Positions 1-22,372 of a stretch of 33,527 nucleotides of DNA are shown in pieces. The DNA is from Proteromonas lacertae. Taxonomy: Eukaryota. The notes under the pieces were generated by a model. It ran no database searches, was not told the origin of the DNA, and worked only from the letters and a program-made list of their open reading frames with translations. The stretch's first letter is position 1. Every line of letters starts with the position of its first letter. The translations under genes and the position numbers were made by a program. The stretch spans positions 1-33,527 of the forward strand of contig NGBS01000342.1 in assembly GCA_002245135.1 (NCBI GenBank), written 5' to 3'.

Positions 1-305
1 TATAATAGAAAAAAGTGAATTCCATCTTGTATTTTTTATTATGCCTACAGAATTCTCAATCTTTTATGATTTACTACAGTTTATAAAAGTTTAGATAATC
101 CAACAAATTAATTTATTGTCTGTTTAACAATATTTTCTTATTCACCACTTTTTTATCCAATTCATCCAATGCTTTGTTGATAGACAGTTGGATTGTATGA
201 AGAAAACATCTTATATTTGGGATATTTATATCTTTGATGGATTTTATAACATTTGCTACATTTTCGCTTGTAATGCAATTAAATCTGATATAGTGTGACT
301 TCATT
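1..305 (-). pseudogene. hAT-superfamily transposase fragment
   Basis: Minus-strand translation gives CITSENVANVIKSIK...IRCFLHTIQLSINKAL (hAT TDN-like and CxxH motifs) and, near positions 1-36, KNTRWNSLFSII (TRWNS motif). The fragment is broken by stops/frameshift and cut at ~305 by the next element. Confidence 0.85.
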
Positions 306-343
306 GATGCAATCGATGAAGCTCCCGTAAGGGTCAACTCTGA

Positions 344-713
344 ATTTAGAAGGGGACTAACTCCTAGAACACTCGTTAGAACTCTGTGACAATATCCCAT
401 AGTCCCATTTACGTAAGGTTCCTACGGGATTCCTCCCAACAGGGTCTACTTCTCAACGGGGTCTGCTTCCCTACGGGGACTCCTGTAAGCTATTTCTATA
501 CCTACCTATACCTATCTATGAGACGATCTCCTACGGGTACTCCTGGAAGCTATCTAGAAGTGTTGGTTACCTCAAGGTGATGATTCTAATCATGCTCTTG
601 ACTCTCCTTGCTACGCTGGTGATCTTGTAAGGGCTTTTAATTGAACCGTGGAAACCAATCGTGGAACCGGGAGTTTACAATTGTTAACTTGTTACCAATT
701 GTTAACTCCTGGA
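344..713 (+). repeat. Left terminal inverted repeat of the RNR element
   Basis: atttagaaggggactaactcctagaacac...gggagtttacaattgttaac is the reverse complement of 7459-7799, apart from scattered substitutions, an extra ~45 bp block near 468-515, and one fewer ~17-nt palindromic unit at the inner end. Confidence 0.95.
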
Positions 714-763
714 CTTTACAATTGTTAAGATCTCCATTGAGTCTTTTCTGATCTGTGAATACT

Positions 764-1508
764 ATGAAGAGAACCAGACCTATCAATGCCTCCGAGGAAT
801 CTTCTAACGATGAGGAAGACACTAAGGTGTTCAGAATTAAGCTTAAGCCGGAGTATAAGAAGTTGAAGGCTGAGATGATTGCTGCTGCCGATGATGATGA
901 TGTTCCTCCTCCTCTCCCTCCTAAACCTCCTAAACCTCCTAAATCTATACTAACAATCACTAACTCCAAGGATGAAGACGATGATGATGTTCCTTTCAAT
1001 GCAGAGATCATGGACCTGGTAAGAGACTTCAAAGCTGACAATACACCGATAAAGCTAGGGTCCGTGATTACTTACCTTGATTATAAACGATGTTGTTTGA
1101 ATGAGTTCCTGGATGCCCTTTACAATTACGTGTCGAAGGAGATCACCTTGAATGAAGACATATCATGACCAGGATGAAGAAGCGCTGTAAGCTTATCAGA
1201 TACAACAATCGCAAGGAAGAAGACTATGGATACATCCCCCTAGGCCATCTCATGGAGCTTTGCAACTGCACCATGTGCATTCAGAACATTGAAGTATCTT
1301 CTTGGCTATGACATCGAACAGCTTACTGCTAGCAAGAAGATGAAGCAGTACATGGACTTCCTCCAAGCCAACTTGAAGGTTAAGTACTTAATTGAATATC
1401 TTCTCAGTAATGAAGAACAAGTTCGATCAGTTCTGTATCATTAGTCCTAAGATGGATGATCTTGACCTTACTGAATCTACGGATGTTGAATCCTCCGGTG
1501 AGGACTAA
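764..1508 (+). pseudogene. Orphan protein with acidic/Pro-rich N-terminus, frameshifted
   Basis: ORF 755-1168 continues in shifted frames (IMTRMKKRCKLIRYNNRKEEDYGYIPLGHLMELCNCTMC; YLLGYDIEQLTASKKMKQYMDFLQANLKVKYL; ISPKMDDL...SSGED*). No family recognised. Confidence 0.55.
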
Positions 1509-1685
1509 CTAGCATTACTTAAAACCTGATAATCTCTTGTTCTATTCTATCTCAGCGTTGTCCTTGAAGTTCCTTTGAAGTGTCTTTTCAATTGTTCATT
1601 GCATTGTTGTCTTGAGGAGATCACTTACGGGGACGCTTAGTGTTATTTAAGCAATCCCCCAAGACAACAAACAATAAAACAAAGA

Positions 1686-2505
1686 CTAATTAATTACTTC
1701 TTTAAGTGGACGTGGAAGGATCGGGAGATCTCTACAGAAGGAAGTAAGGTTGAGGTTCAGCTTCTCTAATTGAATCGCCTTCTTAAGGATTGGAATTGAT
1801 AGATGAAGTCTGGTCATAAACTGATAGAACATTGACGGCAAAGTCATCTTCCCAGGAGTTTGTGCTCGAGCCATCGAAGTAGTAGTTCATGATCCATTGC
1901 AGTGCTTCCACCTTCCACATCTTGTTATTGTAACTCAATTGTCCATATCGTTCCTTTGCCGAGAGGACAAAGAAGTTAAATATTCATCTCTCAGTGATGT
2001 TAAAGACATGATCTTGCGTGGCATTGCTAAGGATCACTATCGGTAGATTTGAAGATAGGCTCATACAATGCATAAGGAGCTGACCGATGGTATAGGTCCA
2101 GTTGTTGCATGATGCTATGATCTTCAACCCCGAGGTTGTTAAGGGAACATCTCTGATCGAAGTCTTCCCATAGTTCTTCATCATATAGGAGGCTGGGAAT
2201 AAGGTATCGTCAAAGTCAAGGATGATGATTGTCTTGAGAATAGCGATGGAGATCCCCTGGTTGTATTAGTAAGGATGAGCAATGCCTAAGAGTTGATCGA
2301 AGGCTGTTTTATAGGAAGATCGATTCTCTTGACTGGTGACTCCTGGTAATCCATTGACGAATTGCGGACTGTTGCTATACTCCATGTGAGTGTGTTCATA
2401 AGGCATTGCTTTGATGGAGGCTATTTGAGGGTGATCATTCTCGGGAGTAGATTCACCGATAAGTAAAGGAGGACGGTAAGGAGCAATCGATCTAGTAATG
2501 ACCAT
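1686..2505 (-). pseudogene. HAD-superfamily phosphatase-like protein (DxDDT type)
   Basis: ORFs 2266-2505 and 1984-2184 share one frame. Reading through TAA 2266-2268 and TGA 1984-1986 gives KTIIILDFDDTLFP, IVILSNA, VLSAKERY...WKVEAL and NVLSV. A lesion near 1810 precedes the C-terminus. Confidence 0.75.
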
Positions 2506-2937
2506 GATTGAAAGGCAAGGAAATTGATCAATGCTGGGAATGTCGATTCATAACTCACTTCGGAATTGTTAACACTTCAGAACTTCTTCCGGCGGGAGTT
2601 ACCAATTTACTTAATCGTTCATTTCCTTGGATCTTACTGAGCAATGGATTTTGACTTTGATCGCTTAGTGCTTCCGTTATGGACTTATAGCTTCCGTGAG
2701 TTCTTCTGTCATGACGAAGTGCTGGTAAGCGTCTTTGGAATCCTCCTTATATTGAACGTCCAGATGTTCCTTGAAGATCACCCAGCTATTGAGCATAGCA
2801 GTTGTTGCAGATTGATCCGAAGTATCTTGTTTACCATCCTTCTAATGATGATGCTGATAGCTCTTTGGGTTGCTATGAACTCTATACCTTAAGTAACTTC
2901 TCCTATCGATAAATACTCTTTAATTAACTCTTACCAG

Positions 2938-4098
2938 ATGTTGTTCTTGGGATGGACTTATCATAGCAGGCATCTCTGTATTCAACTTTTTCTGATCCTC
3001 CTAGAGAGACTTTGCCTTATGAATACTCAACAAGCATTATCTACCCGTACTACCTCTAGCCTTGAATTACAACAGTGTGAGCCTATGGCTACTTCTACTC
3101 ATAAGAAGTCCAAGGTACTTATCATCACTCCCGTAAAGGTAAAGAATTCACGTTCAATTGCTAAGCGTAGTAAGGCTATGAAGTCATCCACCAATTCCAA
3201 TGACTCCAAGAAGCGTAAGCTTAATAAGTACTTAGCACTCAAGGCACCAGTAATATCTCAATCATCGAAGGCATCTCCTACTGTTGCTAGCACTACACTT
3301 AAGAAGAAGCTCCCCAGAGGCAAGACAACTTCCTCGGCACAGTCATCCAAAGATGTCACTATCAAGAACTTAACGAAGACCTTGAAGTCCATCCGCAGCA
3401 AGGACAAGATCATTGACTATGTGGCTATATGCTCTGACTTACGAAAACATCTTCGTTCCTGCTATCAACTACTTCAAGAGACTAAAGCAAAAGCTGATAA
3501 GCTCACTTCCGAGGAAGTACGTCTATCATCAGAGATCATGGACAAGATCTTGGAAGCTATAAAGCACTCTAGCAACCTCCTCAACGATGAAGTCAAGAGT
3601 CAGGACGCTTACATTAATAAGATCCTTGACGATCTTAAACTAGCTTCTGTATCTGATCCATCAGTGACAGCTACATCAGTTCCTGCTTCATTACCAACCC
3701 CAACATCTATTCCCAAAGATGATATTCAAGTAACTACCGATAGCTTTAAGGTAAAGCAAGAGAATCAATCATCCAGTTCTACACCCTCATACACTTACTT
3801 CAATTCACCGATAGTAAGTTCCTTGTCTGGCAATCCAACAACCTCTGGACTAGCAACACCAGCAAGTACTTCCCCATCAATTCCTTTACAAGTTCCCATG
3901 CAGGTTCCTATTCAGGCTCCTTTGAAAACTACAAAGACTGTTAAAGGTAAGAGATCTACAAAATCATCCTTTCCTACTCCTCCAGCATCAATGAACTACT
4001 ACTCTAACTACAATCCTTATGCTGCTTACGTTCCATCATTCAGAGGAGTCTATCAGCAACAGGCCCAACAAATACCGACCTTATCCAGATACTTCTAA
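2938..4098 (+). CDS. Orphan: Lys/Ser-rich N-terminus, central helical/coiled-coil region, Ser/Thr/Pro-rich C-terminus (likely real start at 3019 or 3085)
   Basis: Long uninterrupted ORF; convergent with the RNR gene. Confidence 0.7.
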   Translation: MLFLGWTYHSRHLCIQLFLILLERLCLMNTQQALSTRTTSSLELQQCEPMATSTHKKSKVLIITPVKVKNSRSIAKRSKAMKSSTNSNDSKKRKLNKYLALKAPVISQSSKASPTVASTTLKKKLPRGKTTSSAQSSKDVTIKNLTKTLKSIRSKDKIIDYVAICSDLRKHLRSCYQLLQETKAKADKLTSEEVRLSSEIMDKILEAIKHSSNLLNDEVKSQDAYINKILDDLKLASVSDPSVTATSVPASLPTPTSIPKDDIQVTTDSFKVKQENQSSSSTPSYTYFNSPIVSSLSGNPTTSGLATPASTSPSIPLQVPMQVPIQAPLKTTKTVKGKRSTKSSFPTPPASMNYYSNYNPYAAYVPSFRGVYQQQAQQIPTLSRYF

Positions 4099-4275
4099 GT
4101 TCCTTAATCACTTATTGTTAATAACCTTGAGTTGTTTACGGGCTGCTGCAATCATCGTCTAGGATCTATCGGAGATGCTTATTATCACGTCCCTTATCAT
4201 CTCCTATCCGATGATATCTACTTTGATTATTGTCCATCCCTACATAAAACCTTTAAGATCACTTAGGTAATTTAC

Positions 4276-6389
4276 TTAAAGGCAATGATCACCATCACAA
4301 TAGCTTACTTCAATCGGGAATGGTTGATTGTAGTCTCCATCTAGTTCATTTCCTTGAACTTCCTCGGGACTTAGATCGATCTTATAATCCCTTGAGGAGC
4401 TTCTGATAAAGTCAGGTTCTGATACTTGACGTAGGAGTCGGTAATACTCCTCCTTGGAGATCTCTTCATAAGGCATCTGTGGGTAGGTTGTTTTCATCTG
4501 GTCAGTGGCAACTGAAGGTAAGAATGATACTCCCTTGAGTTGATATTGAAAGTAGTCTAGTGCGTGTTGAATATGGGGCCCTTCTAGTTTCGGATCAAAG
4601 GTAATCGTACAGGACACTTGATTGTCAGCCCAGTACTTCTGAACGAAGGCTAGCAACATCAGCTGCTCGTACATCGGTACCTCCTTGATAGTTCTAACTC
4701 CTTTTACTTCGACTGGGAAGGAGATCACCGAGGTTGTCTCTGGGCAATAGAAGTCATCTTCAATCGGATACTTTGCATGCTTCAAGACTCTAATTAATGG
4801 ACTATTCTTATCTATCCTAATCCTTCTAACGTAGTAGTTGCTCTGTGGGAAGTGAATCCCTGGAGTTGCTCAAGCAAGTAGACTGACTGTACCACTTGGC
4901 TTTACCGATGTTGTCTTGATTGATCGTGGAATGCAGAACCACTCGGAGTAGATCCTATCCCAGTGTTGGATAGTTGAATAGCCTTCTTCCATCCAAGTCT
5001 TGAGAATATCAACTCCGTACTTATCAATGAACTGTGCTATCCCACTGATACTGCATCCGATCCTTCTATTCCTTAACATCACTCTGTTGGTCTCTGGCCA
5101 GTGAGTCATCCCCAGAGTCACAGTCTTGGCATATAGGTAAGCAAACTTTAGTGTCCTTAAGAACTCTCCTAGATTATGTTGACGATAAGGAAACGTCTCT
5201 ACCAGGCAACACATCTCATAAAACTCCAGCGATTGTTCTAGACAAGGATTACCACCGAGAACTCTTCGATCCTTCTTATTCTTTGGATCGCCTAGCCTTC
5301 CATACTCTTGCATGTTCTTCAACCAGCAGATACCAGGCTCTCCATTCTTCCGTATGCGTTCAGTTATATTGCTATAGTCCATTCCTTTGATTGCAAAGAC
5401 ACTGTTGTTGGATGCCCATCCAAAGGAGCTTCTGTCTGGGTTGAGATCATAGTCCTTGAGGTTAAGGAACTCTTCATCGTGATGTTCTCCAAAGGCTATC
5501 TCTGCGGATCTTTGGACATTACCACTGACTATGCATCTACCGATGAGGTTTCCTAAGTCCACGATTGCTCTTGTTGATATGGGCTTACCGATGAGATCAT
5601 CCAGGACTAGTCGGATAGAGTGATGAAGCTCCTTCAGAGGAGTTGCCTCACCAGCAACTCCTCCGAATACTTTAAGTACCTTTCCCTTGTCTCGGATCTT
5701 CTCGTAGTTGAAGTAAACAGCTGGCTGCTTTACGAAGTGAAACATCTTAACCTTGTTACCTTCCACATCCTCAGATTCATACATCTCACGCCTTCCATAG
5801 TAAGACTCCAACAAGAGACTCAAGGAGTTCACCCAGCCTTCTCGGGAGTCAGGAATCTCGTAATACATGGACTGTTGTAAGCGATCGGGTCCTTGAATGA
5901 TAATCTTTTCTTTACCGGTAGTATCAAAACCTACTCCAACTCCCAGCATACTCGCATCCATCAGGAACTTGAAGGGCTTTATGGGATCAATATCGATATC
6001 CTTAGTTGATACGAATGCACAGTTGTTGAGTGCAGCACTTAGCTTCTTCCATGAGGTAGGAACTTCATGTTGAACATTAGATCATACATCTCCTTAGCTG
6101 AGCTTAATCCTTGCTCTTCATTCCATCCTAAGCATTGCTCTTGTATGTAGTCCTTCTGCAGTGTATAAGTGCCTTCAACAACTCTTCTTACCGTCTGATA
6201 CCATTCTTCATAGACTGGAGGATCATCGTTGATTAACCTGGAGTACGTTCTGCGATAGATGAACTCACCGAGACCATTGAATCCAAAGGGGGCCTTTACG
6301 GTCTTATACTTATCGATGAAACTATCGGGGAGATGAAATGATAAGGACGTCTATGCCGTGCAAGACATATTGCTTATTGCTAGACTCAT
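4276..6389 (-). pseudogene. nrdJ: Adenosylcobalamin-dependent (class II, monomeric type) ribonucleotide reductase
   Basis: Motifs APFGFNGLGEFIYRRTYSR, AALNNCAFVST, FLMDASMLGVGVGFDT, PDSREGWV, GNVQRSAEI, GGNPCLEQSLE..EMCCLVE, RNRRIG, TTSVKPSGTVSLLA, WADNQVSCTITF and the C-terminal YCDGDHC. Lesions: TAG near 6352, a frameshifting deletion near 6052 removing the expected PGRGLW segment, and in-frame TGA at 4870-4872. Confidence 0.95.
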
Positions 6390-6807
6390 AAGAAAGTCAA
6401 TGACTAGGAGTTGTCGGTGATGCCAAGATCCCTTGAAGTAAGTTGTACCATAAACATCCGTATTACGTATTAGTAGGTTCCATTCCCATTTTCCCCGGAC
6501 AATTGTTATTAGCTTCTAGTGGCTCCAGATACGTCAAGGTGGGTCTCACTTCATCAGCTCAGTATAATCCAACATAAAAACTCCCATTAATACTTACCCA
6601 ACTGCGAGGTGCTTTCTCTTGACTGCTCCAGCTTACGACTTCACTGACATGGAATAGCACTCGTGTTTATCCTTCCAGGCAAAGCTCTTCTTCTTCTAGA
6701 CATCATCTTCAAATCACTTTGGTTATAAGTTCCTTTGAAGTTCATCCTAGAGCATCTCCGTAGTGTTGATGTTAGTGCGTATAGAACACCCCAACAAAGT
6801 CAATTAA

Positions 6808-7293
6808 TTAGAAGGGAAGATCGTTAAGCAAGTTACATTGAACTCCACGGTCCTTGAATACTACAATTGGCCTTGATACTCCCACGATATGATCTGTTTC
6901 AGATACCTTACAATAATGACCACTTCCATCTTCAAGAGGAACGTAAAGTGTTGGTCTGCGACATCTAAGGTTAGTTATTATCTCCTCCTTTACCTTCATT
7001 GACTTCAAAGGTAGTTCAGGTGCACACTCAGGTATTGGAATCTCGAATGCTTCTGGGGAGTACTCAGGTATTGGAATATCAACTGGGTTGTTGACGATAA
7101 GCTTATCAGAGAAGGTAAGTTTCTTATGGTGTTGATGATTCTTCCTTTGACGATACCTACGGCACTCTTCACAGCTCTTGTAATATCCTCCATCCCGTTT
7201 CAGAAACTCCTTCCTTGGGTGGATCTTGAAGCACCTACAGCATAAGACTCCATTCAAAGGTAACTTATTCTAATATAGATTCACACGTCTCAT
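6808..7293 (-). pseudogene. Cys4 zinc-finger protein (CxxC...CxxC)
   Basis: CCRCFKIHPRKEFLKRDGGYYKSCEECRRYRQRK. The ATG at 7293 is in frame but followed by TAG at 7270-7272. Internal duplicated IPIPE unit. Confidence 0.65.
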
Positions 7294-7458
7294 CCTGTAT
7301 AGTTGTTGATACTTATTGCGTTCTTCACGGCATTGACTACAGATCTTATAGAAGTGCTTGCAGTCTCGTTTAATTTCTCTAGGGCGTCTTCTACGACTAT
7401 AGCAACAAATAAACATGAGGTCTTTAGATTGCGAGGAAATTCGAAATTAATCAAAGCC

Positions 7459-7799
7459 TCCTGGATTTACCAATTGGTAACTTGTTAACAATTGTTAACT
7501 AGTTAACAATTGTAAACTCCCGGTTCCCCAGTTGGTTTCCACGGTTCAATTAAAAGCCCTTACAAGATCACCAGCGTAGCAAGGAGAGTCAAGAGTGTGA
7601 TTAGATTCATCACCTCGAGGTAACCAACACTTCTAGATAGCTTCCAGGAGTACCCGTAGGAGATCGTCTCATAGAAGTAGACTCTGTTGAGAAGTAGACC
7701 CTGTTGGGAAGAATCTCGTAGGAACCTTACGTAAATGGGACCCTGGGACATTGTCACAGAGCTCTCACTAGTGTTCTAGGAGTTAGTCCCCTTCTAGAT
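7459..7799 (-). repeat. Right terminal inverted repeat of the RNR element
   Basis: Reverse complement of 344-713, e.g. acggttcaattaaaagcccttacaagatcaccagcgtagcaaggagagtcaagag versus ctcttgactctccttgctacgctggtgatcttgtaagggcttttaattgaaccgt. Confidence 0.95.
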
Positions 7800-7848
7800 G
7801 CATCAATGAAGCTCCCATAAAGGTCAACTCTGAATCTAGAAGGGGACT
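7785..7848. repeat. Terminal hairpin/palindrome junction: 15-bp perfect stem around a 34-nt loop
   Basis: agtccccttctagat (7785-7799), loop 7800-7833, atctagaaggggact (7834-7848). The stem extends a further ~53 bp via 11672-11724 once the insertion is removed. Confidence 0.9.
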
Positions 7849-8493
7849 TGTTGTGCGCCGTTTGTCATAGTTGGCCGTTTGTCTACCAGACACTTTTAAA
7901 ACAAACTAAATGTATATTATTACTTGTCTTGATGAAAAATTGTTACTTTTATATTAACATTTTGTATATGATAGACATGTCACGATATGACTTAATTAGC
8001 CTATGTAACAAATTTACTTTACATAATCTATTAATACATATTAAGTACATGAATAATATAAAATATTAGCTTACAACTCACTTCTGTTGTTGATATAAAT
8101 AAAAAAATGTAACTAAAAACTTGAATTTTCTTATCACCTTATTTGTACGAAAATCAATATTTTGATATAAACACTTGTTTTATATGCACATGGTTTTCAT
8201 TTAAATCTATAATTTTAGATATAAAGTTAATATCTACAATATAAACAGAAATACAATCTTTAATCGACATGAATATCAAAGCTACAACAAATTAATATAT
8301 TTCATATTTCAATACCTTCTATAAAAATCATTCATTTCAGCGTGTAGCCAATTACAATATATTATTAACACTTAGCTTCTTTTGTATAAATTACAAAGTT
8401 ATAATTTATGTGTTGTTTTTTGTTTTATATAATAGTATCAATGATTATGAAATGATACACATAAGTTACAGAAGAAAATTGAGAAGTGAAAAA

Positions 8494-8551
8494 TGTCTCC
8501 TAGACAAACGGCGTATTTCTAAATCTTCTCACGCCGTTTGTCTAGGAGACA
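8494..8551. repeat. Internal perfect 21-bp inverted repeat related to the element's TIR
   Basis: tgtctcctagacaaacggcgt, 16-nt spacer, acgccgtttgtctaggagaca. Compare TIR gccgtttgtctaccagacactttt. Confidence 0.9.
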
Positions 8552-8757
8552 CTTTTGATTTCTCATATTTCATATATGAGATAATCATAATATATTATTA
8601 ACAAATATAACAAAATTGAAATCAGAAAATAAGTTGAAACAACATTCAACTCAAATCTTTTTCCAAAATTGTTTTTTATGTTATGTGGATGTGTGTACCT
8701 AACAAACACATTGTAATTATATAAAGATACTTTTTAGAATTTTTAAAGAAAATGAAA

Positions 8758-9171
8758 TTATTTAAATCTATAAATGTTTTTTTTGTTGTAAATGTAAAAC
8801 AATTTCGCTTTTTCTTCGTTATTTAAACTTTCTATACCTTCAATTAAATCATCAATGAAGTATTTTATATTAAAACTTTCTATATTTTGAATCTTTGTTA
8901 TTTCCAAATTATTCAATCTGGCTCCAAGAAAGAATAAACAGTAATATCCACAAGTTACAGCATCTGTTTGATGAACTTTTGTATCATCTATTTCATATGA
9001 TTCTAATTCACGATTGCAAAAATGAAAGAGTTGTTTAATATTCTTTATTACTATATTTCTTGGTTCTTTGTTCATATAAATTGCTAAACTGTCATATATT
9101 CTAAACATCATATAGTCATTAGGAACATAATCTACTTCCCATAAACTCCAATGACTTTGATTTGGATCACA
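8758..9171 (-). pseudogene. Ulp1/C48-like (clan CE) cysteine protease, C-terminal fragment
   Basis: The frame extends upstream of the listed ORF: NQSHWSLWEVD...RIYDSL...HQTDAVTCGYYCLFF, giving the His, Asp, Gln, Cys catalytic order. The 5' part is cut at ~9173. Confidence 0.8.
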
Positions 9172-9173
9172 TC

Positions 9174-9852
9174 TGAGTTCGGCAACGGGACGTCCTTTTG
9201 TGTTTTGTCCCGTCCCTTGTCCTTTTCATACACGAAAACTTCTCGTTGATTACACATGTCCTCTTTGTCCCGGGACGTGTAGTTTAACACGTCCTTTTTT
9301 GTCCTATATTTTTGAGTTTAAGTTTCTGTTTTTTTAATAAAAATATTCTGCAAAAGCATTAAATAAGCTTAATATTAAGTATTACATACTATACTCAAGT
9401 CATTTTTGTATATCCTAAATAATATCTTTTGAAAATCCATTTAAGCCATATTTGCTATATCTATGAATAATATTTAACCCACTTATACCACTTAGATAAC
9501 TCTGTATAGTTTAATGAAGAATATCCCCATTAACAAACACTCATCACATAACAGAACTTCACATGATACATGCTTATCATTACACTATTTTCTACTATAT
9601 ATGACATTTTTCGCGAAAGTATTTCAACCGATATATGCTTTACTATATATGAGATATACTTTAGAAATTTAAAGAAAATCTATGACATTATATCAACAAT
9701 ACCAAGTTTAATGTTCAAGCTCTTTTATTGAGAGAATTTTCTCCATCGCAAGAGTAATACATTCATACAGGAGAAACAGATTAAACTTAGAAACTATTAA
9801 TAACATTATGAGATTAAAGTATGAATTAGTTGAGAGAAATAAGAGAGAATAA
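9174..9852 (+). mobile_element. Truncated hAT element nested in the TGT...ACA element
   Basis: GC-rich terminus-like start (ctgagttcggcaacgggacgtcc, with repeated gtccc/gggac motifs) and a hAT dimerisation-domain remnant at ~9666-9852: NLKKIYDIISTIP/CSSSFIERIFSIARVIHSYRRNRLNLETINNIMRLK. No second end found. Confidence 0.7.
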
Positions 9853-10134
9853 GAACAAAATGTAGGAAGTGATGAAGATGAAAATAGAGAAATTACTAAT
9901 GTGGAAGTAATAAGTAAAGAAGATGATGAGCAAAGTGAAGAAGGTAGTCCAGATCATCAATGTTATTATTAATAATCTTACTCATATCACCTAATTTCTC
10001 AGGATTTAATTAAACTTTAATCATTTGAGTTGCCATTGGTCCAATTACACCTTTAACTGGATCAGGGAAATAACTACCAATCTATATACTTCTTTTATCT
10101 TGTTCTGTTTTCAAATTGAGCACTTAAATTGGAT

Positions 10135-10707
10135 TTATTCTTTAATGTTAAAGTTCGATAATAAGGTATATCTTAAATAACAATCTCCATATTTCAATGA
10201 TTCTTCTAATAATTCTACTTCAGCTACTCGACATTCAGCACTTATTGGAATTGTTAATAAAGCTTCACCTACACTTTCAATATCAATTGCTAAACAATAA
10301 TCATATACTTTTATTGTTTGAGATATGAAATTGATTTTGATTTTCTCTTCTCCTTCTGGTAATACTGTTGCTACTGCTTGAATTATTTCGAATTCTTTGT
10401 TTAAGTAATTACCATCTTGAGGAACTCGTAAATTGAATATAAATGGAACAGAGGAAGTATTTCTTAATATCAAATCAGTTGAGTTAAAAAACGCATAACT
10501 TACAATACCAAAATCTAGTTTATTCTTATTAAAGAAGAATGTTGGACCAACTACATGTCCTTTTATTGTTAATACCACATTATTAGTTGCTCCTTTTAAT
10601 GCAAATTCAAAATGATCACTAAATTCACCAAGAGTTGAACTTGTATAAGATACTTCGATTGTTACACTTTCTTCTATATCTACTTCACTTTCTGGCGGAG
10701 TAAATAT
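10135..10707 (-). pseudogene. HYDIN: Captured fragment of Hydin (axonemal central-pair protein, ASH/Ig-like repeats)
   Basis: FTPPESEV...LGEFSDHFEFALKG...LTIKGHVVGPTFFFNKNKLDFGIVSYAF...LRNTSSVPFIFNLRVPQDG...KEFEI...YGDCYLRY resembles the N-terminal repeats of Hydin. Only ~190 codons of a normally very large protein are present. Confidence 0.8.
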
Positions 10708-11035
10708 TAATTTGGTTTAATTGATCCTTCATTGGTAAGTAATACTTCAACCAATATCTAATGATAAATAAGCAGGATCCATTGATATTATTTGAGTACT
10801 TCAACCAATATCTAAATCTTGAGCTTGAGCTTTTATTCTTCTAATTAATACATTTTTTCTCCTAAAGTCTAAATCAACATTCTGCTGTATATTTGATATA
10901 TTATTTTTTCTACTCTATAATTGGGCCTAGTTAATCTTTGACTTCTTAAACCTCGATTTTCTATTAAAATGCGCTTTCAGCTTATCTGTTAATAAATTTA
11001 TCACCAAAATCAATTACATCTACTTTATGTTCATA

Positions 11036-11140
11036 AAATAATGATGCTTCTGTACCTTTCGCTGTACATGATAGTATTATAAAGTTTATAAATAATATAA
11101 AGAAAGTATTTTGATAATAATAATAATAATAATAATAATA

Positions 11141-11171
<31 letters not shown>

Positions 11172-11236
11172 ACATTTTGATTTTCTAAAATAAAAAATAA
11201 AAAAAAACTGTCAAGTTTGACAAGCTTGATTTTTCT
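11036..11236 (-). repeat. Segment with (TA)n/(TAT)n microsatellite, duplicated in inverted orientation at 12962-13087
   Basis: Both copies read agaaaaatcaagcttgt...aagtactatata...tattatcaaaatactttctttatattatttataaactttataatactatcatgtacagcgaaaggtacagaagcatcattatttt. Confidence 0.9.
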
Positions 11237-11671
11237 TTTTTGAAATATCTTCATATCTTGATATAATATTTTAACATTCTTCAAAGTGTCTGCTGAAATT
11301 CATTTTTTCTCTTTGACTGAATCAAAAAAAAACATACAAACAAAAAAGTTGAAGAAAATGAAATTTTAAATTAAAAAAGATGTCAGAAGGGGTATTATTC
11401 TTAATTCCTGTGTAACTGACACTTCTCATTTAGACATTATATGTCAATAAAAACATATAATTTGGAATATACATAATTTCTAGAATATATTTTGATAGTT
11501 TTTATTCAATATTATGACAATTAATAGTTACTCATAGATGTAGGTTATATGACAAAGTAAGTATAAAAGTAACAATTTTTCATTAAAAGAAGTGTAATTG
11601 TGTATTTAGTTTGTTTTGAAAGTGTCTGGTAGACAAACGGCCAACTCTGACAAACGGCGCACAACAGGACT

Positions 11672-11724
11672 GACTCCTAGAACACTCGTTAGAACTCTGT
11701 GACAATGTCCCAGGGTCCCATTTA
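11672..11724 (+). repeat. Displaced continuation of the RNR-element TIR (outer arm of the right palindrome)
   Basis: gactcctagaacactcgttagaactctgtgacaatgtcccagggtcccattta matches 359-411 directly and ~7732-7784 in reverse complement. Confidence 0.92.
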
Positions 11725-12113
11725 TATACTATATATTCCAGTTTTTTTATTGCATGTATATTCTACACCACAGTGTATACATATACAGAAATTACTCCCT
11801 TTAATTTAATTCGCTATACTCATATTATAATTTACAAAATAACCATATCAACACCTTCTATTTATTTTATTGTTCCATATTTAATAATTATATCTCAATA
11901 AAAACAATTAACAAATGAAATATGGTATAAAAATAATAAAGTTTGTCTATAAGTTCGATTTTAATTCTTCAAAACATTTGATTTAAATTATCGAGTTATC
12001 CTATGAAGTGTCATTATTTACTGAAATTTGAAACTCTGGAGACTCTTCGAAATGCATAAATGTACCTGTTATCTTATCTAGAATTTTCATCCAATCCTAA
12101 CCTTAATTTCGCA

Positions 12114-12653
12114 CTATGGTCTTCTTCTGGTGGCACTCAGATATTTTTCTAATACTAATAATGAATCACCAATCCATGCACCTATATCCATAACATCTTT
12201 ATTTAACATGTAATTAAGCATTTTTTTATTAAAATAAATAATTCCATGCTTATAAAAGAATACTTCCGGATAAAAATATGAAAAATTATATCTCATTTTA
12301 TATACAGGAAGCAGGGATAAATATAATTTATTATTATTCAACTGTTCATTTGAAAACACTTTAACTAGCTTTTCACATATTATTATTGTTTTCATCATAT
12401 ATTTTTGATTGTTTAAATTCATTTTTGATATATAGTCTGTATTCCTTTTCATATATAAGAATTCTTTTTCAATGTGCTCAATTGATTTAGTTATACTGTA
12501 ATTATTTAAATTTAAAATTTCTTCTCTAATTTTAATAAAGAAAGGGAACAGTTTAATACCTTTACTACATATTTTATAATCTACTTTATCTTTTTTGTAA
12601 AACATTGATAGAAAATAAATAATCCACAAGACAAATATAAGATATAATATCAT
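12114..12653 (-). pseudogene. FkbM-family SAM-dependent methyltransferase with N-terminal membrane anchor, 3'-truncated
   Basis: Hydrophobic N-terminus, then EVFFYKHG...NKDVMDIGAWIGDSLLVLEKY (SAM motif I). The ORF ends a few codons later, before the rest of the fold. Confidence 0.7.
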
Positions 12654-12961
12654 AATTTACAGATTGTTGCAATTAAATGTTACTAAATATCATAATATTT
12701 GTACGAGCCATCAAGTTTGGCATTTCTGTAACGATTCTTTCCATAAAACATACATTTAAAGAGAATTTTAGATATATAATTTTTTATTATGGTATATAAT
12801 TATGATTTTATATTCTTGTTAATAGATTAGTAGTATGGTGAACTTATCAGCTGAAATTATAGACTTATATGTCTTCACCTCCCAAGACTTTTCTAAACAC
12901 AGAATGACTAACGTGTTAAATTGTTTATCGCGCAAATTTCTTTATCGCGCGACATATTTCA

Positions 12962-13087
12962 TAAAGAAAAATCAAGCTTGTAAGTACTATATATATATAT
13001 ATTATTATCAAAATACTTTCTTTATATTATTTATAAACTTTATAATACTATCATGTACAGCGAAAGGTACAGAAGCATCATTATTTT
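12962..13087 (+). repeat. Inverted partial copy of 11036-11236
   Basis: Near-identical sequence with an internal deletion and shorter microsatellites. Confidence 0.9.
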
Positions 13088-13379
13088 AATAGAAAATTGA
13101 TTTTGTGACCGGTTTTACATAATTTACCTCTTCTTTTACCTTAATATTTGTACTCATCTTCGATGTATTTCAATTTATATCTTATCTCTGAGTATGTAAG
13201 TCTTGATTTTGATCCTGAAATTAAATGATATAATTTCGATTTTGTGGGAGCTCTGATTTTACCGTCTTTTCTGAAGCTTATGATGATTACTTGTTTGTCT
13301 AATTCTGTTAATTTGAATGGAACTGTTCTATGTTTAGTTTTTTTTATTATCTTCCATAAAATGTTAGTCTTATGATGAT

Positions 13380-13961
13380 TTGTTTATAGTTAAGGATATG
13401 CTATATACACCTGTAATAGAAGGTAATGGTGATTTATTTAAGCTAGATGATAAAGATGATGAACATACCAGACATTTAAAAATTGCAAGTAAAATGAATG
13501 CATTATATAGTTTAACAAAACCTATTTTTTGGATTTCAAAAATAGAAATAGTAACAAAAGATTTAGCCTACAAGATATTAGGTATTCCAAATAATAGCTA
13601 TTGGTTATGTTATGATAAATTTGTTCCAGGACCTCAAGGAACAGAAAAAGCATTTTCAGTAGATTTCCCATTTACTCAATTACCATATCGTCCATCTCTT
13701 ATATGGGTTAGCGCGATATCCATTCGTTTAGATATTGTAAACATCATTCAAGATTCAAATGTGTTAGAAAATATACCAATAGCAAACCCTGAGTTTCCAT
13801 TCATTACATACCAGAACAATGACATTCTTAATACTAGCAAAATGTTCAATAATACTTATGCCAATGGTCAAATTACAATTCAGATTACTCAACAAAATGG
13901 TTATGAACTCAATCTTGATAATATCGAGTTTAATTTAGCTATTGTTGTCTTTAAAGTCTAA
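13380..13961 (+). CDS. Minor capsid (penton-like, single jelly-roll) protein, probably 5'-truncated
   Basis: KILG, ISIRLDIV, NVLENIP...FITYQN and ITIQITQQNGYELNLDNIEFNLAIVVF follow the C-terminal pattern of Polinton/virophage minor capsid proteins. It lies directly upstream of the MCP. Confidence 0.72.
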   Translation: MFIVKDMLYTPVIEGNGDLFKLDDKDDEHTRHLKIASKMNALYSLTKPIFWISKIEIVTKDLAYKILGIPNNSYWLCYDKFVPGPQGTEKAFSVDFPFTQLPYRPSLIWVSAISIRLDIVNIIQDSNVLENIPIANPEFPFITYQNNDILNTSKMFNNTYANGQITIQITQQNGYELNLDNIEFNLAIVVFKV

Positions 13962-13982
13962 TTTTTATTTTATTTTTATTTT

Positions 13983-15449
13983 ATGTTTCTGATGTCTCTA
14001 ACTATCCCAAAAGAGCAAAAACACGGTGTAGACGTTCCAGCAATGATGACCTTTTATCAGTATGTCAAGTTGACACCAATGGAAACAAAATCATTCTATC
14101 AACTTAAAAATAACACTTAATCAGATGAAATAAGGTTCGAATTAAGTGGTGAGAACATTATAAACCTTGCAAAGTCTTACATTCAATATGATATCGAAAT
14201 TGAAACTACTCCACTTTCTAAAATTGGAGCATTTCAAAAAATTGATGGTAGTGGTAATGTAGCAGGTGATAATACTTTATATCCAAAATATATAAAAGGA
14301 ATGAAAGAAGGATTTGGATTAGCAGCATTTCGTTTATGTAATAATACAGGAACAGATCTAATCAAGCTTGATGACAATTATGAACACTATAGAGTGTTTA
14401 TGGATGAATTAGTGAGAAAAAGATCAGACATGTTTTACCAATCAAACTATAATGATGGAATTCAATTAAAATGGAATGATGAATACCATGATCATTTAAT
14501 TCTTGATGAAAATGAATGGGAAATGGATAAAGATGGAGCTACAAAAATTATAGTTACTGGATCAGGTGATAAATATCAACAGTATAAAAAGTCTAAAACT
14601 ATTCATGTAAAGATGTTTTTAGGTAAATTTTACAATACATTCTTATCAATGAAAAGTGATGCATTCTTTGGAGAGAGAATGTATTTATGTTTCAATTTCC
14701 AACAAAGTCCTAAATTTGGACAAATTATGGGTTTTAATAATGATGAAGGTGCATCAACATCAATAAACTGGCCTATAGATGGAATAAGACCAGATTCAAT
14801 TAAATTCAAGAATTTTTATTTCTATGCTTATTTGAATAAAGATACTCAATGTAATAACAATACAAGAAGTTATTGTTTATCTAAACCAATCCAGTTCAAT
14901 GATGTAAAGTGCCATACATTAACAGTAAATCAAGGTGGATCTGGACAATTCAACTATTCCTTTACATTAAACAGCTCAAATGGACCATTCTTACGTTACA
15001 TTATCTATAGACCATGGATCGAAGGAACTCAAACAGCACACGATGGTAAGAGTGGAACAGCAACAAATAGATATGCAGTAATTCCTGAAAATGCACAATT
15101 CAGATGGATGATTAACGATTTCGTGTATCAACCAGACTATTCATTAATGCAGTATTATGATAGTTACATGACTGTACAAGATTATTTCAAAGATTCATGG
15201 TTTGATATATTCAAAAGACATATTCCTTTTAAAAAGAAGTTCTTTGAAATTTTGAATTTTGGATCAAAAGACTTGGATAATATCAAGAATCAATCAGGAA
15301 GACCATTAGCTAGTGACTTAAAGATCACTTTTGAGTTGTCTACTCCTGGTACAAATGATTTCACTAACTTTAATATCACTCATCGTTTCTATATAGTTAC
15401 AGGAAGAATGTGTACAATCAATGGAAGTGGAATTGTAAGTGTTATTTAA
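13983..15449 (+). pseudogene. Major capsid protein (double jelly-roll), ~485 codons with one in-frame TAA
   Basis: ATG 13983/13992 is in frame with ORF 14301-15449 across TAA 14118-14120. N-terminal EIRFELSGENIINLAKSYIQYDIEI and C-terminal CTINGSGIVSVI. Size and position between penton and ATPase fit. Confidence 0.8.
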
Positions 15450-15513
15450 ACTAACTAATAACTAGCATAATGACTATATTCCTTATATAATTGTTTTTTT
15501 ATTTTTTATTTAA

Positions 15514-16362
15514 ATGAGTAAAATAAAACTAGAGAAATGTAATGACGTTGTCATAACGCCAGTAGAATCAGTAGTCAAAGGTAATAAAAAGAGATCAAGA
15601 GATACTGTTTTAGGCTATGATTATTTTGAAGAGCCTTTCTGCAATATATTTATATTAGCTAAGAAGAACAGTGGAAAGACAACACTTATATTTAACATGA
15701 TACAACACTTGTTAAAGAAGAATTATGATCAAACTGTATATTTCTTTGTAGGAACAATTTCAAAGGATATTATTTATGAAAAGATCACTGATATGCTGAA
15801 GTACAATTTAATAGAATACCATTGTTACGATTCAATAGTAAATGAAGATAAAGTGAATGTATTAGATGCAGTATTGAATAATATCACAGATGTTGATAAA
15901 GACAATTATAGTTATCCTGAAAATATCTTTATATTCGATGATATATCATTCGATTTATCAAATAAGACCGTTTCAAAACTACTCAAATCAAACCGTCATT
16001 ACAAGTCAAAAGTAATTATATCAAGTCAATATGTTACAGATTTAACACCATCTGTTCGTCTACAATTAGATTATTGCTTAGTATTTAGAAATCTAAGTTT
16101 AGCTAATCTACACAGTGTTCATAATAGTTTAGATTTGTGGGTAGATTTCAGTAAGTTTAGAGAATATTACAAGTATGCAACCAATTACAGTAATCATTCA
16201 TTCCTCTACATCGATTTGTGCAATCATGAATTTCGTGTAAACTTTAATATGAAAATTAAAAACGATAGTAATGGTTATAAAAGTGATAATGAAAATACCA
16301 GCATTAGTTCCTCCTCCTCTTCTTCCTCTGATTCGTCCGATACTGATGATGATTCAGAATAA
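15514..16362 (+). CDS. A32/FtsK-HerA family genome-packaging ATPase
   Basis: Walker A variant IFILAKKNSGKTT, Walker B IFIFDD, and RHYKSKVIISSQY..LTPSVR; acidic/Ser tail. Confidence 0.93.
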   Translation: MSKIKLEKCNDVVITPVESVVKGNKKRSRDTVLGYDYFEEPFCNIFILAKKNSGKTTLIFNMIQHLLKKNYDQTVYFFVGTISKDIIYEKITDMLKYNLIEYHCYDSIVNEDKVNVLDAVLNNITDVDKDNYSYPENIFIFDDISFDLSNKTVSKLLKSNRHYKSKVIISSQYVTDLTPSVRLQLDYCLVFRNLSLANLHSVHNSLDLWVDFSKFREYYKYATNYSNHSFLYIDLCNHEFRVNFNMKIKNDSNGYKSDNENTSISSSSSSSSDSSDTDDDSE

Positions 16363-16411
16363 TCCTCATAATGCTAGTAACTTAATTTTTATCATTCTTT
16401 TATTATATTTT

Positions 16412-17288
16412 ATGTTTGGTGGTCCCTTAAAAAAACAAGCTGTTTCAATAGATACAGGTGCTAACAAACAATTTAGGTAAGAAAGCTGATGATGATAAAA
16501 CAATTAGAAAAATGTTGAAAGAAATTGACGTAACAACTAACAATAATGCAGAGTCAGTTAAGAGTGTTGTTAATGCGATAGGTAAAACGAAATTAGAAGC
16601 AAATGAAAGAAATTTATATGAGATGATTAAACATGTTTATGATGTGATTGGTTATCCTAGTTTTGGTAAAGATGATGGTGATTTATATATTTTGGTTAGA
16701 GAATGTTTTTACGCTGTAAGTGATATAACTACTATGCTTAGTAAGGTAGGTGACATTGAATGGAAAATAGGTTATGGTGATTGTTCTTATGATTGTATGT
16801 ATAAATTTGTAAAAGATACATATAATCAAATGAATGAGTTAGTTAAACGTTTTGGTAAACATATTATAGAAGACTGGCTAATTGTATATACAAGAGATAT
16901 TAATGGACAAAGCGAAAGTATATTAAATTGTAGAAAACTCTATGTTCAATATATAGTTCATGATCATTTTATGGAGTTAAAGATAATGAATTATTATAGT
17001 ATGAAAATAAATGACAAATTATTATGGATTAAAACAACTGATAGTTCTCAAACAGCTAATTTTATAAAGAACTATACACCTAAATTAGATATAAGTGCAG
17101 ATACAGGTTTTAAATTCGATTTATTATGTCAATCCTTTAGTGGTAAAGTTCAGCCAATTATTATGAAACCAGAATCATTTTCTCCAATAGATGAATATTT
17201 TACATTCGGTTTAGCAGAAGCTCCAAATAATACATTTGAATGGAATATAGTTATATTACCCCAATCAATCATATTACCTTTCAAATAG
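16412..17288 (+). pseudogene. Possible fibre/spike-like structural protein (helical N-half, beta-rich C-half), frameshift near 5' end
   Basis: ATG 16412 (MFGGPLKKQAVSID) joins ORF 16458-17288 by a 1-nt shift. Function is inferred only from position and composition. Confidence 0.5.
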
Positions 17289-17335
17289 TATAGTATATAA
17301 TTTTAATTAATCTTCTTTGTTTCATTTTTTGTTGT

Positions 17336-19014
17336 TTACTTGGGTGGTTGTTGTTGTTGAGCAACTTGAGAACTTGAAACAAATGGATTATAACCAGTGC
17401 TATTGCTAGTGTATGGTATTGTTGGTGGTTGAAATGCCATTGTGACTGATTGATTAACTACTGGTTGTTGTTGTTGTTGTTGTTGTTGTTGTACATCTGT
17501 AGATGGTACTGGAATATCTTCAACTGGTGCAAAACTTGAATATATTTCAAATTTAGGTAAAACAGTATAATAAGGAGTATTGTTCTGCATTGATGATAAA
17601 ACCATACACTGTCTAATTCTTACTTCAAAATCACAATACTTCAATAAGTGAGAAGTTGGATCACTGATAATGTTGTTCCATGCAGTACATTTCAGTTGAT
17701 TGTTATCATTATCTAATGGAATTACTAAATTTAATCCAAATTGCTGATAGGAATTCTTCATTTTGATATCTTCTGTAAATTTAATTGTTGATTCGACACA
17801 AACATTTTTTATAGTCTCCTTTACTTGAGCATTGAAATCCATAATCGGCTGACGATTAAATAGTAAATATCTAGCAGGAGTGAAAGTAATGTAATGACAT
17901 TTGCCAGACTTAGCTAATTCTGCTCTATGCATATACCCTCTAAACTTGACGTACATGTTATCTGAAGGATTGAAAGCAGGGTTGTATTTATCGGTTACCG
18001 ACGGAGATAGGTCAAAACCTATAGGTTTTGCCTTGACCGTCGGTCGGTCAAGCCTTACAAGCCGTATATTATAAAATCTATTTTAATTCATTATATACTA
18101 ATTTTCCCTTCATAAAAACTATCTTATAATATATTTTAATACTTGATTCATATATTTTCAATTCAATTAAATAATTTTTAACTTTTTATAAAGAATTAAA
18201 ATTTAATACTCAACAATAATTAGGTATTTTATATAATTATGTTCTTATTTATTTCTACTAATCATCAGTTTCATTTGTAATCTATCACATGATAAATTTG
18301 ATTTGGATAAGTTACTTATTTGTCCAGCCTCTGAAAATATTCTTTCTGGCTCTGAAGATGTTGTAATGAATATCATAATGCAAATATTCTTGTACTTCAT
18401 TTGGCATAATTAATCTCTTTCTTTTTACTGCAAATGCATTTATCAAGGCTTTTTATCTTTAACATATTATACCAAAAGGTTTTGTATAAGTTAAAATTAA
18501 GATGTTTAAGCATATTTGCCTCTATTAAGGCAATAACTTCACGAGCCGCTCCAATTGGTAAAACTATACTCCTAGAATATATAATGATAGATTATATTAG
18601 ATACATTTATGATAATTTTAAGAAATGATTAATGTCAAGCTAAAAGTTTGCCATTTTTTCTTTCAAATTTTTATAATCATTCTATACTTTATATTACATA
18701 TATAACACAATAGAATAACTCATTGGTAAGGTTAGATTCAATTATGAAGAAAGAAAAAAGCGCATCGACCGACACGGTTAATTCAGTATTTTATAGAATG
18801 ATATATAGAGCTTGAATTCAATATGTACAGTTAGATAATATTATTAATATCACATGTTTAGGAGGAGGTCAGCTAATAGTTACTACAGCCTGGTGTCGGT
18901 CAACATTTGTTTATTGACCTACGACCGATCGGTTTTCTCCGTCGGTCATGACCGATTTATACAACCCTGATTGAAAGTGATGAAATTGACTCCGTTTTCT
19001 ATTTTTGATGACAT
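17336..19014 (-). pseudogene. 225-aa viral protein with Q/P-rich tail, split by hAT insertion (possible OB-fold ssDNA-binding protein)
   Basis: Removing 17977-18969 and one TSD restores MSSKIENGVNFITFNPSDNMYVKFRG... in frame from ATG 19014. Confidence 0.75.
17977..18969. mobile_element. Non-autonomous hAT transposon, 993 bp
   Basis: TIRs cagggttgtat / atacaaccctg and 8-bp TSD ATTGAAAG (17969-17976, 18970-18977). Subterminal gaccg/cggtc motifs. Minus-strand dimerisation-domain remnant ITTSSEPERIFSEAGQISNLSKSNLS near 18245-18400. Confidence 0.95.
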
Positions 19015-19162
19015 GATTATTATGATTATTAGATATCCAATAAAATGTTAGAATTAAGATTTTATATCCGTTTCATGCATTTTATGGTTTGAAGCTCGAA
19101 GCGCGAATATGCTAATTAGCGGTTTTTTAATAGAATATTTTCATAACCCTTCTTCAACATAA

Positions 19163-19576
19163 ATGGATTCAGATAGTATATTTGTAATAGAGCAGAGAGC
19201 TAAAAAACCAGTATATTTATTTGTTAAAGAGATCAATGTGCTTAGAGCATTTATTGAAACTATCCTAGGTTTAATTAAGACTGCAGCTCAAAACTATATC
19301 ATATGTAAGAATGAAGACATTACCAAATTTAATAGCGTATCTCAATTATTGTTAGGACATATTAATAAGTATGCTAATAAGATGAGAAAGCCAGTTCCAG
19401 ACACAATAGTAGTAGAAGCTCAGAATCTGTTCGATTGGTTTGTAAAATTGGTTAAACAATATGCTATAAACTTACAGATGCCTCCTCCTAAGTATCATAT
19501 TAACGAGTATGGTTCAGTTATCAAAGTGTTGTTGGAAGAATTAGATCTTTACACAAAAATCAAAGAAACCAAATAA
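19163..19576 (+). CDS. Hypothetical viral protein, alpha-helical
   Basis: Intact ATG-initiated ORF ending in the TAATTA junction. Confidence 0.7.
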   Translation: MDSDSIFVIEQRAKKPVYLFVKEINVLRAFIETILGLIKTAAQNYIICKNEDITKFNSVSQLLLGHINKYANKMRKPVPDTIVVEAQNLFDWFVKLVKQYAINLQMPPPKYHINEYGSVIKVLLEELDLYTKIKETK

Positions 19577-19580
19577 TTAA

Positions 19581-20144
19581 TTAATTAAAAGCATTTACAT
19601 ATACTATATTAACTAAAGAACTATAGAAATTGAAACATGTTTTTTCAAATTGGGTAAATAAGTAAACTTTGAAATACAATTTTTGATTAGCTTCCAAGTG
19701 CCAGTTATCTCTAAAATACTGATTGTACATAATGAGTAATCTTCTTATTGCACCTACTATTGTACTATAAGGAACTGATTGATTTTCTGTAAGATCTATA
19801 ATTAAATCTATTTCTTTACATAATGAATCTACTTGATTTGCTGTTAAACTATTCAACGTTCTAAGACTTGGTTTGAATTTCGATAAAGATAACTTAAATA
19901 ATTCCAATGTATATTGTATTTCTTCAATGCTAGCAATTACTCTTGGACCTTCAATACCTATTGGTAATCTACTCTCTGCATGACTTTCTAAAACATCTAT
20001 AGGATCTTCATTTGAAGGAGCAGGTCTTTTATTTTCTGGATCGTCTCTAATTATAAGTATAGGTGATCTAGCTGGAGGTGCAGGAGGTGGAGGTAAAGGT
20101 AATGGTATAGATTCTGTTTTTATGGGTATATTACTCATAAACAA
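19581..20144 (-). CDS. Hypothetical viral protein with Pro-rich N-terminus
   Basis: Intact ORF convergent with 19163-19576; likely ATG at 20138. Confidence 0.7.
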   Translation of the reverse strand: MFMSNIPIKTESIPLPLPPPPAPPARSPILIIRDDPENKRPAPSNEDPIDVLESHAESRLPIGIEGPRVIASIEEIQYTLELFKLSLSKFKPSLRTLNSLTANQVDSLCKEIDLIIDLTENQSVPYSTIVGAIRRLLIMYNQYFRDNWHLEANQKLYFKVYLFTQFEKTCFNFYSSLVNIVYVNAFN

Positions 20145-20183
20145 TAAGTAAAAATAAAAAAAAGAATTAATTAATTAATTAGT

Positions 20184-20717: not shown

Positions 20718-20757
20718 AATTTAAAATAATAAAACGAATATATTTTTAATAATTATG

Positions 20758-22350: not shown

Positions 22351-22372
22351 TTCTCTTAGATTAGGTAATAGT

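Follow-up and report, generated by a model that had tools for sequence, protein, structure and literature searches.

The 33,527-nucleotide (nt) window analysed here, which comprises positions 1 to 33,527 of contig NGBS01000342.1 of the Proteromonas lacertae assembly GCA_002245135.1, carries an element of 7.6 kb, not counting a later transposon that splits it, and we consider this element to be, on balance, probably the chromosomal fossil of a virus-derived linear double-stranded DNA with covalently closed hairpin ends that was patched into a chromosome break. In the notation used below, T stands for the long terminal repeat, S for the spacer and T67 for the 67-nt restart of T, and a prime marks an inverted copy. 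On the plus strand the order is S-T-core-T'-S-T67, an arrangement of the ends that a symmetric molecule with terminal hairpins yields once its two loops have been opened. The terminal features and the interrupting transposon are the following:

299..321, no strand assigned: left-edge fold-back with a 10-bp stem and a 3-nt loop
312..344, plus strand: left copy of S (its positions 4-36), with a ccc-GTAA-ggg mini-hairpin
345..706, plus strand: left T, 362 nt, with three CCTACGG motifs and an 18-nt palindromic array at its inner end (to ~728)
7484..7798, minus strand: right T', 315 nt, inverted, with more perfect palindromes than the left copy
7799..7834, plus strand: right S, 36 nt, in the same sense as left S, with A at three sites where the left copy has G
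7835..7848, plus strand: restart of T, first 14 nt
7849..11666, no strand assigned: later non-autonomous DNA transposon, outside the element, with TGTTG termini and inverted repeats of ~120 nt
11672..11724, plus strand: restart of T, nt 15-67, ending abruptly

Self-BLAST bore out the layout proposed in an earlier note on this DNA, namely a spacer followed by a terminal inverted repeat (TIR) on the left, and an inverted TIR, a same-sense spacer and a restarting TIR on the right. Positions 306-358 match 7797-7848 in the same sense (53 nt, 90.6%, E 1e-12), positions 341-706 match 7802-7484 in inverted orientation (E 3e-108), and positions 11667-11724 match both 354-411 in the same sense and 7732-7789 in inverted orientation (58 nt, 93%, E 4e-18). 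When the left and right copies of T were aligned over 315 columns, 294 matched and 21 did not, 14 of these 21 mismatches being transitions, and the left copy exceeds the right one by 47 nt. While the layout stood, two of the figures given for it did not: the spacer between the paired arms measures 36 nt instead of 35 or 34 (34 nt are obtained if the closing T-A pair is assigned to the stem), and the left edge of the element lies at 299 instead of 306. That the restart had been split by a later transposon proved right. The 3.8-kb insert follows 14 nt of T and is flanked by a 5-bp duplication, GGACT (7844-7848 and 11667-11671), and both pieces of the restart together amount to 67 nt. The left and right copies of S+T67 differ at 8 of 100 sites, compared with two differences in the outer 62 nt of the transposon ends, and the interruption is therefore likely younger than the element.

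In the 67 columns that are common to all three copies of T, we counted four changes private to the left copy, one private to the restart and three private to the right inverted copy. The three last-named sites are clustered, and the variants there are present in both arms following S and missing from the arm preceding it, as fixed mismatches in a stem would be; a tandem fits this pattern equally well. The right repeat region (7467-7804) contains ten perfect palindromes of at least 8 nt, compared with three in the left repeat, and at several sites where left and right T differ, the right copy has precisely the base that makes a palindrome perfect there.

The gene content, the hAT-like flanks, and the left edge at 299 with its fold-back go beyond the earlier note. 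The left boundary was placed at 299 because the 13 nt with which the right spacer begins recur, exact and inverted, at positions 299-311. Simulated flank-like windows supplied the seven bases ahead of 306 by chance in 227 of 184,829 cases (0.0012, with five registers allowed). Short palindromes are typical leftovers of opened hairpins or of fold-back at single-stranded ends, and the left-edge fold-back leans toward a hairpin origin. The spacer had been described as only partly self-complementary. In its left copy, with ccc-GTAA-ggg, 8 of 15 positions pair in register (P 0.022, or 0.07 with register slack), whereas its folding energy falls within the range of shuffled sequences. At 42-50%, the GC content of S matches that of the element (42%, compared with 24-26% in its surroundings) and not that of the flanks (24-25%), and S is not a host-derived duplication, which is excluded by this composition. 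The earlier claim that a target-site duplication is lacking was upheld in that none longer than 5 nt is present at the outer junctions, where the only matches, of 4-5 nt, are simple AT-rich words out of register. This absence is weak evidence, because a duplication could have been lost if the right end was trimmed later on.

Beyond the junctions, the element is bordered on both sides by sequence that we read from its translation:

116..298, minus strand: likely the middle part of a hAT transposase relic, in which a CxxH motif lies 30 codons away from the junction
11725..11922, minus strand: likely start of the same hAT relic, with a BED-finger-like CxxC motif and cut 15 codons later

In the hAT protein Kat1, the corresponding motifs are C130/C133 and C402/H405 (PMC4763223), a spacing that would leave about 200 codons missing between the flanks. 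Judged by these motifs, both flanks are likely parts of one hAT transposase relic, and the loss of codons could date from the integration or from a later deletion. The flank patterns were picked after inspection of the sequence, and shuffled flanks contained the left pattern, CxxHxx[QN]L, in 11 of 3000 cases and the loose right pattern in 174 of 3000. Neither Pfam nor PDB confirmed the hAT reading of the flanks.

The core of the element contains six candidate open reading frames (ORFs):

755..1506, plus strand: ORF A, broken into three or four pieces, with no family or relative
1690..2265, minus strand: broken HAD-like phosphatase with a DxDxT motif and four in-frame stops before the terminal stop, ending at TAATTAATT
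2269..2841, minus strand: ORF C, fragmentary, with no family, which may not be a gene
2938..4098, plus strand: ORF D, 386 codons open, with a basic N-terminus, a Ser/Thr/Pro-rich C-terminus and no family
4276..6368, minus strand: class II (B12-dependent, monomeric RTPR type) ribonucleotide reductase pseudogene, intronless
6808..7446, minus strand: ORF E, with two Cys-rich zinc-finger-like motifs and one internal stop, ending at TAATTAATT

For the Pfam scan, 100 six-frame pieces of at least 33 amino acids (aa) from 299-7850 were used at a cut-off of E 0.01. Only two of the 100 pieces matched a family, and both matches were to ribonucleotide reductase. At the Pfam level, the element is thus free of any recognisable mobility enzyme, as had been stated before: the pieces included no transposase, integrase, recombinase or reverse transcriptase, no helicase or polymerase and, in the core, no rolling-circle initiator. 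Third-position GC (GC3) ranges from 0.39 to 0.59 in six ORF pieces of the element, compared with 0.12-0.25 in five genes outside it that belong to the host and to a neighbouring virus. Genes are densely packed in the cargo and lack introns, and its composition is alien throughout; the evidence leans toward a virus-like, foreign origin. An excess of GATC in the core, which appeared in raw counts, was gone under a Markov expectation.

The reductase pseudogene is broken by a stop at 6351-6353, a frame break near 6040-6060 and a further stop at 4870-4872. Its profile matches, which take in the alpha domain and the B12-type insertion domain, are PF17975 (E 2e-32) and PF21995 (E 1e-9), together with PDB entry 1l1l (E 2e-42), and TIGR02505 matches all three of its pieces, each below the whole-protein cut-off. 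The best matches are Blastocystis-type proteins (60-64%), and in quick trees, made without bootstrap, the sequence has a long branch and falls together with Blastocystis and Cantina, with Shimodaira-Hasegawa-like approximate likelihood ratio test (SH-aLRT) values of 99 and 98 in two trees that had 64 and 54 rows, respectively. The 64-row tree comprised the sequence from the window, those matches shorter than 900 aa among the first 60 of 120, and further named rows, and the 54-row tree was built from the sequence from the window together with 46 selected proteins and 7 of 14 loci. The same type of reductase adjoins an ORF that by eye resembles a B12 adenosyltransferase in L001, a giant-virus contig (giant virus metagenome-assembled genome, GVMAG; 6950-10834), and an apparently intron-split class II reductase of eukaryote type lies near another such ORF in contig L014 (1-2823); in the 54-row tree, the reductases of both loci branch adjacent to the Blastocystis/Cantina group and outside it. 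In Blastocystis sp. Blastoise this reductase occurs three times (P0003, P0008 and P0009), and P0009 is deep-branching. Taken with the affinity of the reductase, the TTAGGG repeats that close the window, a Hydin fragment in the later transposon and a Polinton-like element nearby suggest as host a flagellated, anaerobic protist related to Blastocystis. Blastocystis itself would be an unlikely host, since nearly all flagellar genes are described as lost in all eight of its strains (PMC10690189), while the window contains this Hydin fragment.

For the HAD-like piece, ranks 1 and 3 of an Atlas search (scores 0.93 and 0.91) are all-virus clusters with Nucleocytoviricota as the commonest phylum, the phylum being known for 10 of 64 members at rank 1 and for 7 of 59 at rank 3. 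A single-sequence fold of the read-through was uninformative (mean predicted local distance difference test score, pLDDT, 31.5). ORF E gave weak PHROG matches to HNH and endonuclease VII (E 2e-4 and 2e-3), no relative in phages and Atlas scores of 0.83 at most, and no confirmed relatives of ORFs A, D and E were found in viral contigs. Ten ORFs of the window had no entry in the protein collection that was searched. The motif TAATTAATT stands at the stop codons of 2 of the 4 element ORFs checked and of 7 of the 18 ORFs of a Polinton-like element that neighbours this one in the window, with none in 7850-13300, and the core of the element contains two occurrences compared with 0.09 expected. It may be a signal for gene ends that both elements share, which would be expected if they relied on the same machinery of a helper or of the host. 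The motif positions in the window are 1687, 6802, 19574, 20165, 25373, 26238 and 28967.

Considering these ends and this cargo together, we propose that each end of the free molecule would have been a stem of T' and T closed by S as its loop, and that three mismatches may have been fixed in this stem 30-37 nt down, which would make an imperfect terminal hairpin of ~110 nt. The molecule may have been a giant-virus genome that had suffered internal deletion, one segment of a genome, or a satellite. Its B12-dependent reductase and HAD nucleotidase-like enzyme would have supplied deoxynucleotides without oxygen, and polymerase, resolvase and capsid would have been borrowed from a helper or from the parent virus. 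The nick in the left hairpin would have fallen where the loop begins at its base, and that in the right hairpin 67 nt beyond the loop, or, alternatively, a break may have occurred at the equivalent concatemer junction, and either event would yield S-T-core-T'-S-T67 without a duplication step. The single-stranded loops would have been filled in, the left end having folded on itself by 10 bp, and host end-joining would have inserted it where an old hAT transposase gene had been broken, target DNA being lost. What happened after capture can be read directly, namely decay and a hit of the younger transposon in the right-hand palindrome. A more specific form of this proposal holds that the element represents the complete genome of an undescribed class of satellite or segment of ~7.5 kb with hairpin telomeres, similar to transpovirons in size and to poxviruses in its closed ends. 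It would accompany a large DNA virus whose hosts are anaerobic opalozoan protists, and would carry oxygen-independent deoxynucleotide synthesis as a metabolic and not a replicative cargo; this we think rather unlikely.

The earlier note had already interpreted the element as a captured hairpin replicon, and the geometry, the left fold-back, the element-like GC of the spacer and a virus-like cargo without transposase all speak for such an origin, as does the same reductase type in the giant-virus contig L001. Other observations weigh against it. A head-to-tail circle or tandem predicts the identical string, and the two cannot be told apart, because only 67 nt of the restart survive and these end before T does. 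With respect to folding, 16% and 25% of 500 shuffles fold as well as the spacer by energy, its gapped self-alignment is matched by 12.5% and 49% of 1000 shuffles, and the right copy pairs in register at only 6 of 15 positions (P 0.14). The spacer is not AT-rich, unlike the loops of poxviruses, and the window contains no full inverted (flop) spacer, only the 13-nt inverted piece at the left edge. None of the giant-virus hallmarks capsid, PolB, A32 ATPase, RNA polymerase and resolvase was found among the pieces from 299-7850, and the reductase sits in the trees with cellular proteins and not with virus-like contigs. Rank 2 of the Atlas search with the HAD-like piece is a eukaryotic acid phosphatase, and neither this piece nor its read-through returned relatives by word search, full HMMER scan, phmmer, Pfam or PDB; the viral Atlas match is a lead only. 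Exact-pattern scans with S or T revealed no relatives of the element ends in metagenome or viral contigs, and distant blastn with 299-720 found none in plasmids or phages. The element is known from one copy, and a hairpin origin is limited by this copy being decayed and having no relative.

It is possible, though not probable, that the element derives instead from a circular episome or a head-to-tail tandem of S-T-core-T' units, in which S is the junction of abutted inverted repeats. One unit and the first 103 nt of the next would then have integrated, or a tandem dimer would have been trimmed by deletion; the cargo would still be virus-derived, and the ends need never have been hairpins. Such an origin directly explains the 100-nt direct repeat with its eight differences, agrees with the three variants that the restart has in common with the left repeat, and does not require S to fold, which by energy S does not. 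On its own, however, it leaves both the left-edge fold-back and the in-register pairing of the left spacer unexplained, no recombinase or rolling-circle initiator is encoded in the core, and plain integration of a circle would permute the sequence and not duplicate 100 nt. We judge it quite unlikely that the element is an ordinary non-autonomous TIR transposon ending at T, which would have captured foreign genes, inserted in tandem and been rearranged, with S as an earlier flank. Repeated subterminal motifs in T, as they occur at transposon ends, are in line with this, as are the crowding of the region with transposon relics and the option that a target-site duplication was lost by later deletion. 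On the other hand, S lies outside T at both ends without any duplication of more than 5 nt, and, with 36 nt of element-like GC, it is too long and too GC-rich for a host target-site duplication. The gene-dense, intronless and alien cargo is likewise unlike the host scraps in the adjacent transposon, as exemplified by a Hydin fragment with a GC3 of 0.12.

A little less credible again is retro-capture by a Penelope-like or DIRS/Ngaro-like element, in which the repeats would result from self-priming and template jumps around passengers mobilised in trans. Penelope pseudo-long terminal repeats (pLTRs) carry hammerhead ribozymes, and DIRS and Ngaro elements have either split direct repeats or an internal stretch that is complementary to the two termini, along with reverse transcriptase and recombinase. 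In the element described here, no hammerhead or other RNA family reached the threshold among 14 weak Rfam matches, no internal region is complementary to the termini, the spacer has no internal inverted copy, and Pfam detected neither reverse transcriptase nor recombinase. The repeats around the core are inverted and not direct, the spacer keeps one sense at the two ends, whereas a tail would appear inverted, and the cargo consists of six genes on both strands. As described in the parts of the source used here, Penelope inserts of Adineta have pLTRs of ~200 bp, two of them direct and a third inverted, an optional 31-bp tail and palindromes at the inverted junctions, and they can carry a host gene in trans (PMC3846280). 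This resembles the three mixed-orientation terminal repeats, the extension of 30-odd nt, the junction palindromes and the gene capture in trans considered here and supports retro-capture, whereas our element differs in its orientation pattern, in its multi-gene, two-strand cargo and in that no target duplication, reverse transcriptase or hammerhead was found, the Adineta inserts having target duplications of 8-10 bp (PMC3846280). A similarly slim chance is left for a host gene amplicon, a repair accident (involving, for example, DNA of an engulfed organism or fold-back repeats at a break) or an assembly artefact. The reductase is of the cellular opalozoan type and fold-back is a common repair signature, but the three copies of T occur in two orientations 7 kb apart and are 7-8% diverged, and a transposon flanked by a clean duplication interrupts one of them. 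It follows from this divergence and from the clean split that the terminal structure is old genomic DNA and not an assembly fold-back or read artefact. Moreover, repair does not readily produce repeats of 315 nt at both ends, each with a palindromic array on its inner side.

The comparison with known systems draws on parts of the sources cited. The element resembles the Pokkesviricetes Kaumoebavirus and vaccinia in that inverted terminal repeats are joined via one non-palindromic or imperfectly paired segment, with TIR'-loop-TIR as the replicated or opened form. In Kaumoebavirus LCC10, a 102-nt imperfect hairpin, close to the ~110 nt that we infer here, is joined at both of its ends to the TIR strands, and the GC content is 43% (PMC7909422). 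Its genome of 362 kb and TIR of 1032 nt (PMC7909422) nevertheless differ from the 7.6 kb and 315-362 nt of our element. Vaccinia stocks contain all four flip/flop arrangements, including molecules with two identical ends, and the hairpins of vaccinia and Shope fibroma virus are 93% and 84% A+T, respectively (PMC8956199). The ends would work like the telomeres of pox-, asfar- and kaumoebaviruses, but in contrast to Kaumoebavirus and vaccinia the element has a weakly paired loop with 42-50% GC, no hallmark gene, a chromosomal location and no flop form in the window.

The transpovirons of Mimiviridae, and likewise pltv of pacmanvirus lostcity, are linear molecules of ~7 kb with terminal inverted repeats and few genes, including one for a zinc-finger-type protein, and they depend on a giant virus and recombine into other genomes (PMC11788076). 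According to the same source, every known transpoviron has genes for a helicase and for a probable membrane protein (PMC11788076), whereas the element has no helicase match and its cargo concerns nucleotide metabolism. In the passages of this source that were consulted, neither a spacer nor hairpin ends are described for transpovirons. Egoviruses, which are gut Pokkesviricetes, share with the element linear genomes, inverted terminal repeats and an association with anaerobic gut protists (10.1101/2024.03.23.586382), and by this analogy they would be a plausible kind of parent or helper. They differ in genome size (160-360 kb), in their repeats of 55 bp and in their inferred hosts, which are ciliates and parabasalids; the main text of the egovirus paper describes no gene flux with Blastocystis and contains neither 'hairpin' nor 'ribonucleo' (10.1101/2024.03.23.586382). 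From Polintons and Polinton-like viruses the element differs in that pPolB, integrase, capsids, ATPase and protease were not found in it by Pfam.

If the element does go back to a hairpin-ended replicon, both telomeres of a linear DNA replicon would be frozen in a host chromosome with the positions of the nicks still readable, and the capture route would be the opening of hairpin ends followed by end-joining without an integrase. A thin search of the literature, covering its sources in part, brought up no description of an endogenous element in which the two opened hairpin junctions are both preserved. In this case, S and T would serve as probes for a parent or helper virus in relatives of Blastocystis, a group for which the main text of the egovirus survey gives no virus link (10.1101/2024.03.23.586382), and B12-dependent nucleotide synthesis would be indicated as a cargo of DNA replicons of anaerobic protists.

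The interrupting transposon at 7849-11666, which we take to be Ginger2/Tdd-like, contains several further features. An internal 98-nt palindrome (8474-8571) repeats its terminal motif. Its interior also includes a piece that resembles a protease (8758-9111), part of a hAT dimerisation region (9712-9849, Pfam E 0.014) and the Hydin fragment mentioned above (10138-10716). To the right of our element, a truncated ORF at 12114-12653 presumably resembles an FkbM-type methyltransferase and has no Pfam or NCBIfam match. Positions 11034-11184 and 12968-13088 share an 89-nt inverted duplicate of 100% identity with an adjoining 35-nt match, and the latter copy lies at the left edge of the Polinton-like element.

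This Polinton-like element (13300-32960, or 13.3-32.9 kb) is partly broken and is cut directly by the TTAGGG telomere, which starts at 32961 and whose repeats close the window. Pfam identified pPolB pieces and an Ulp1/adenain-type protease in it, and ATPase, integrase-like and capsid-like ORFs were recognised by eye. BLAST found no match between it and the ends of the 7.6-kb element, and its ATPase has no close relative in viral contigs. The single-sequence fold of its putative capsid was uninformative (mean pLDDT 30.9). A 63-nt imperfect palindrome lies within it at 24461-24523.

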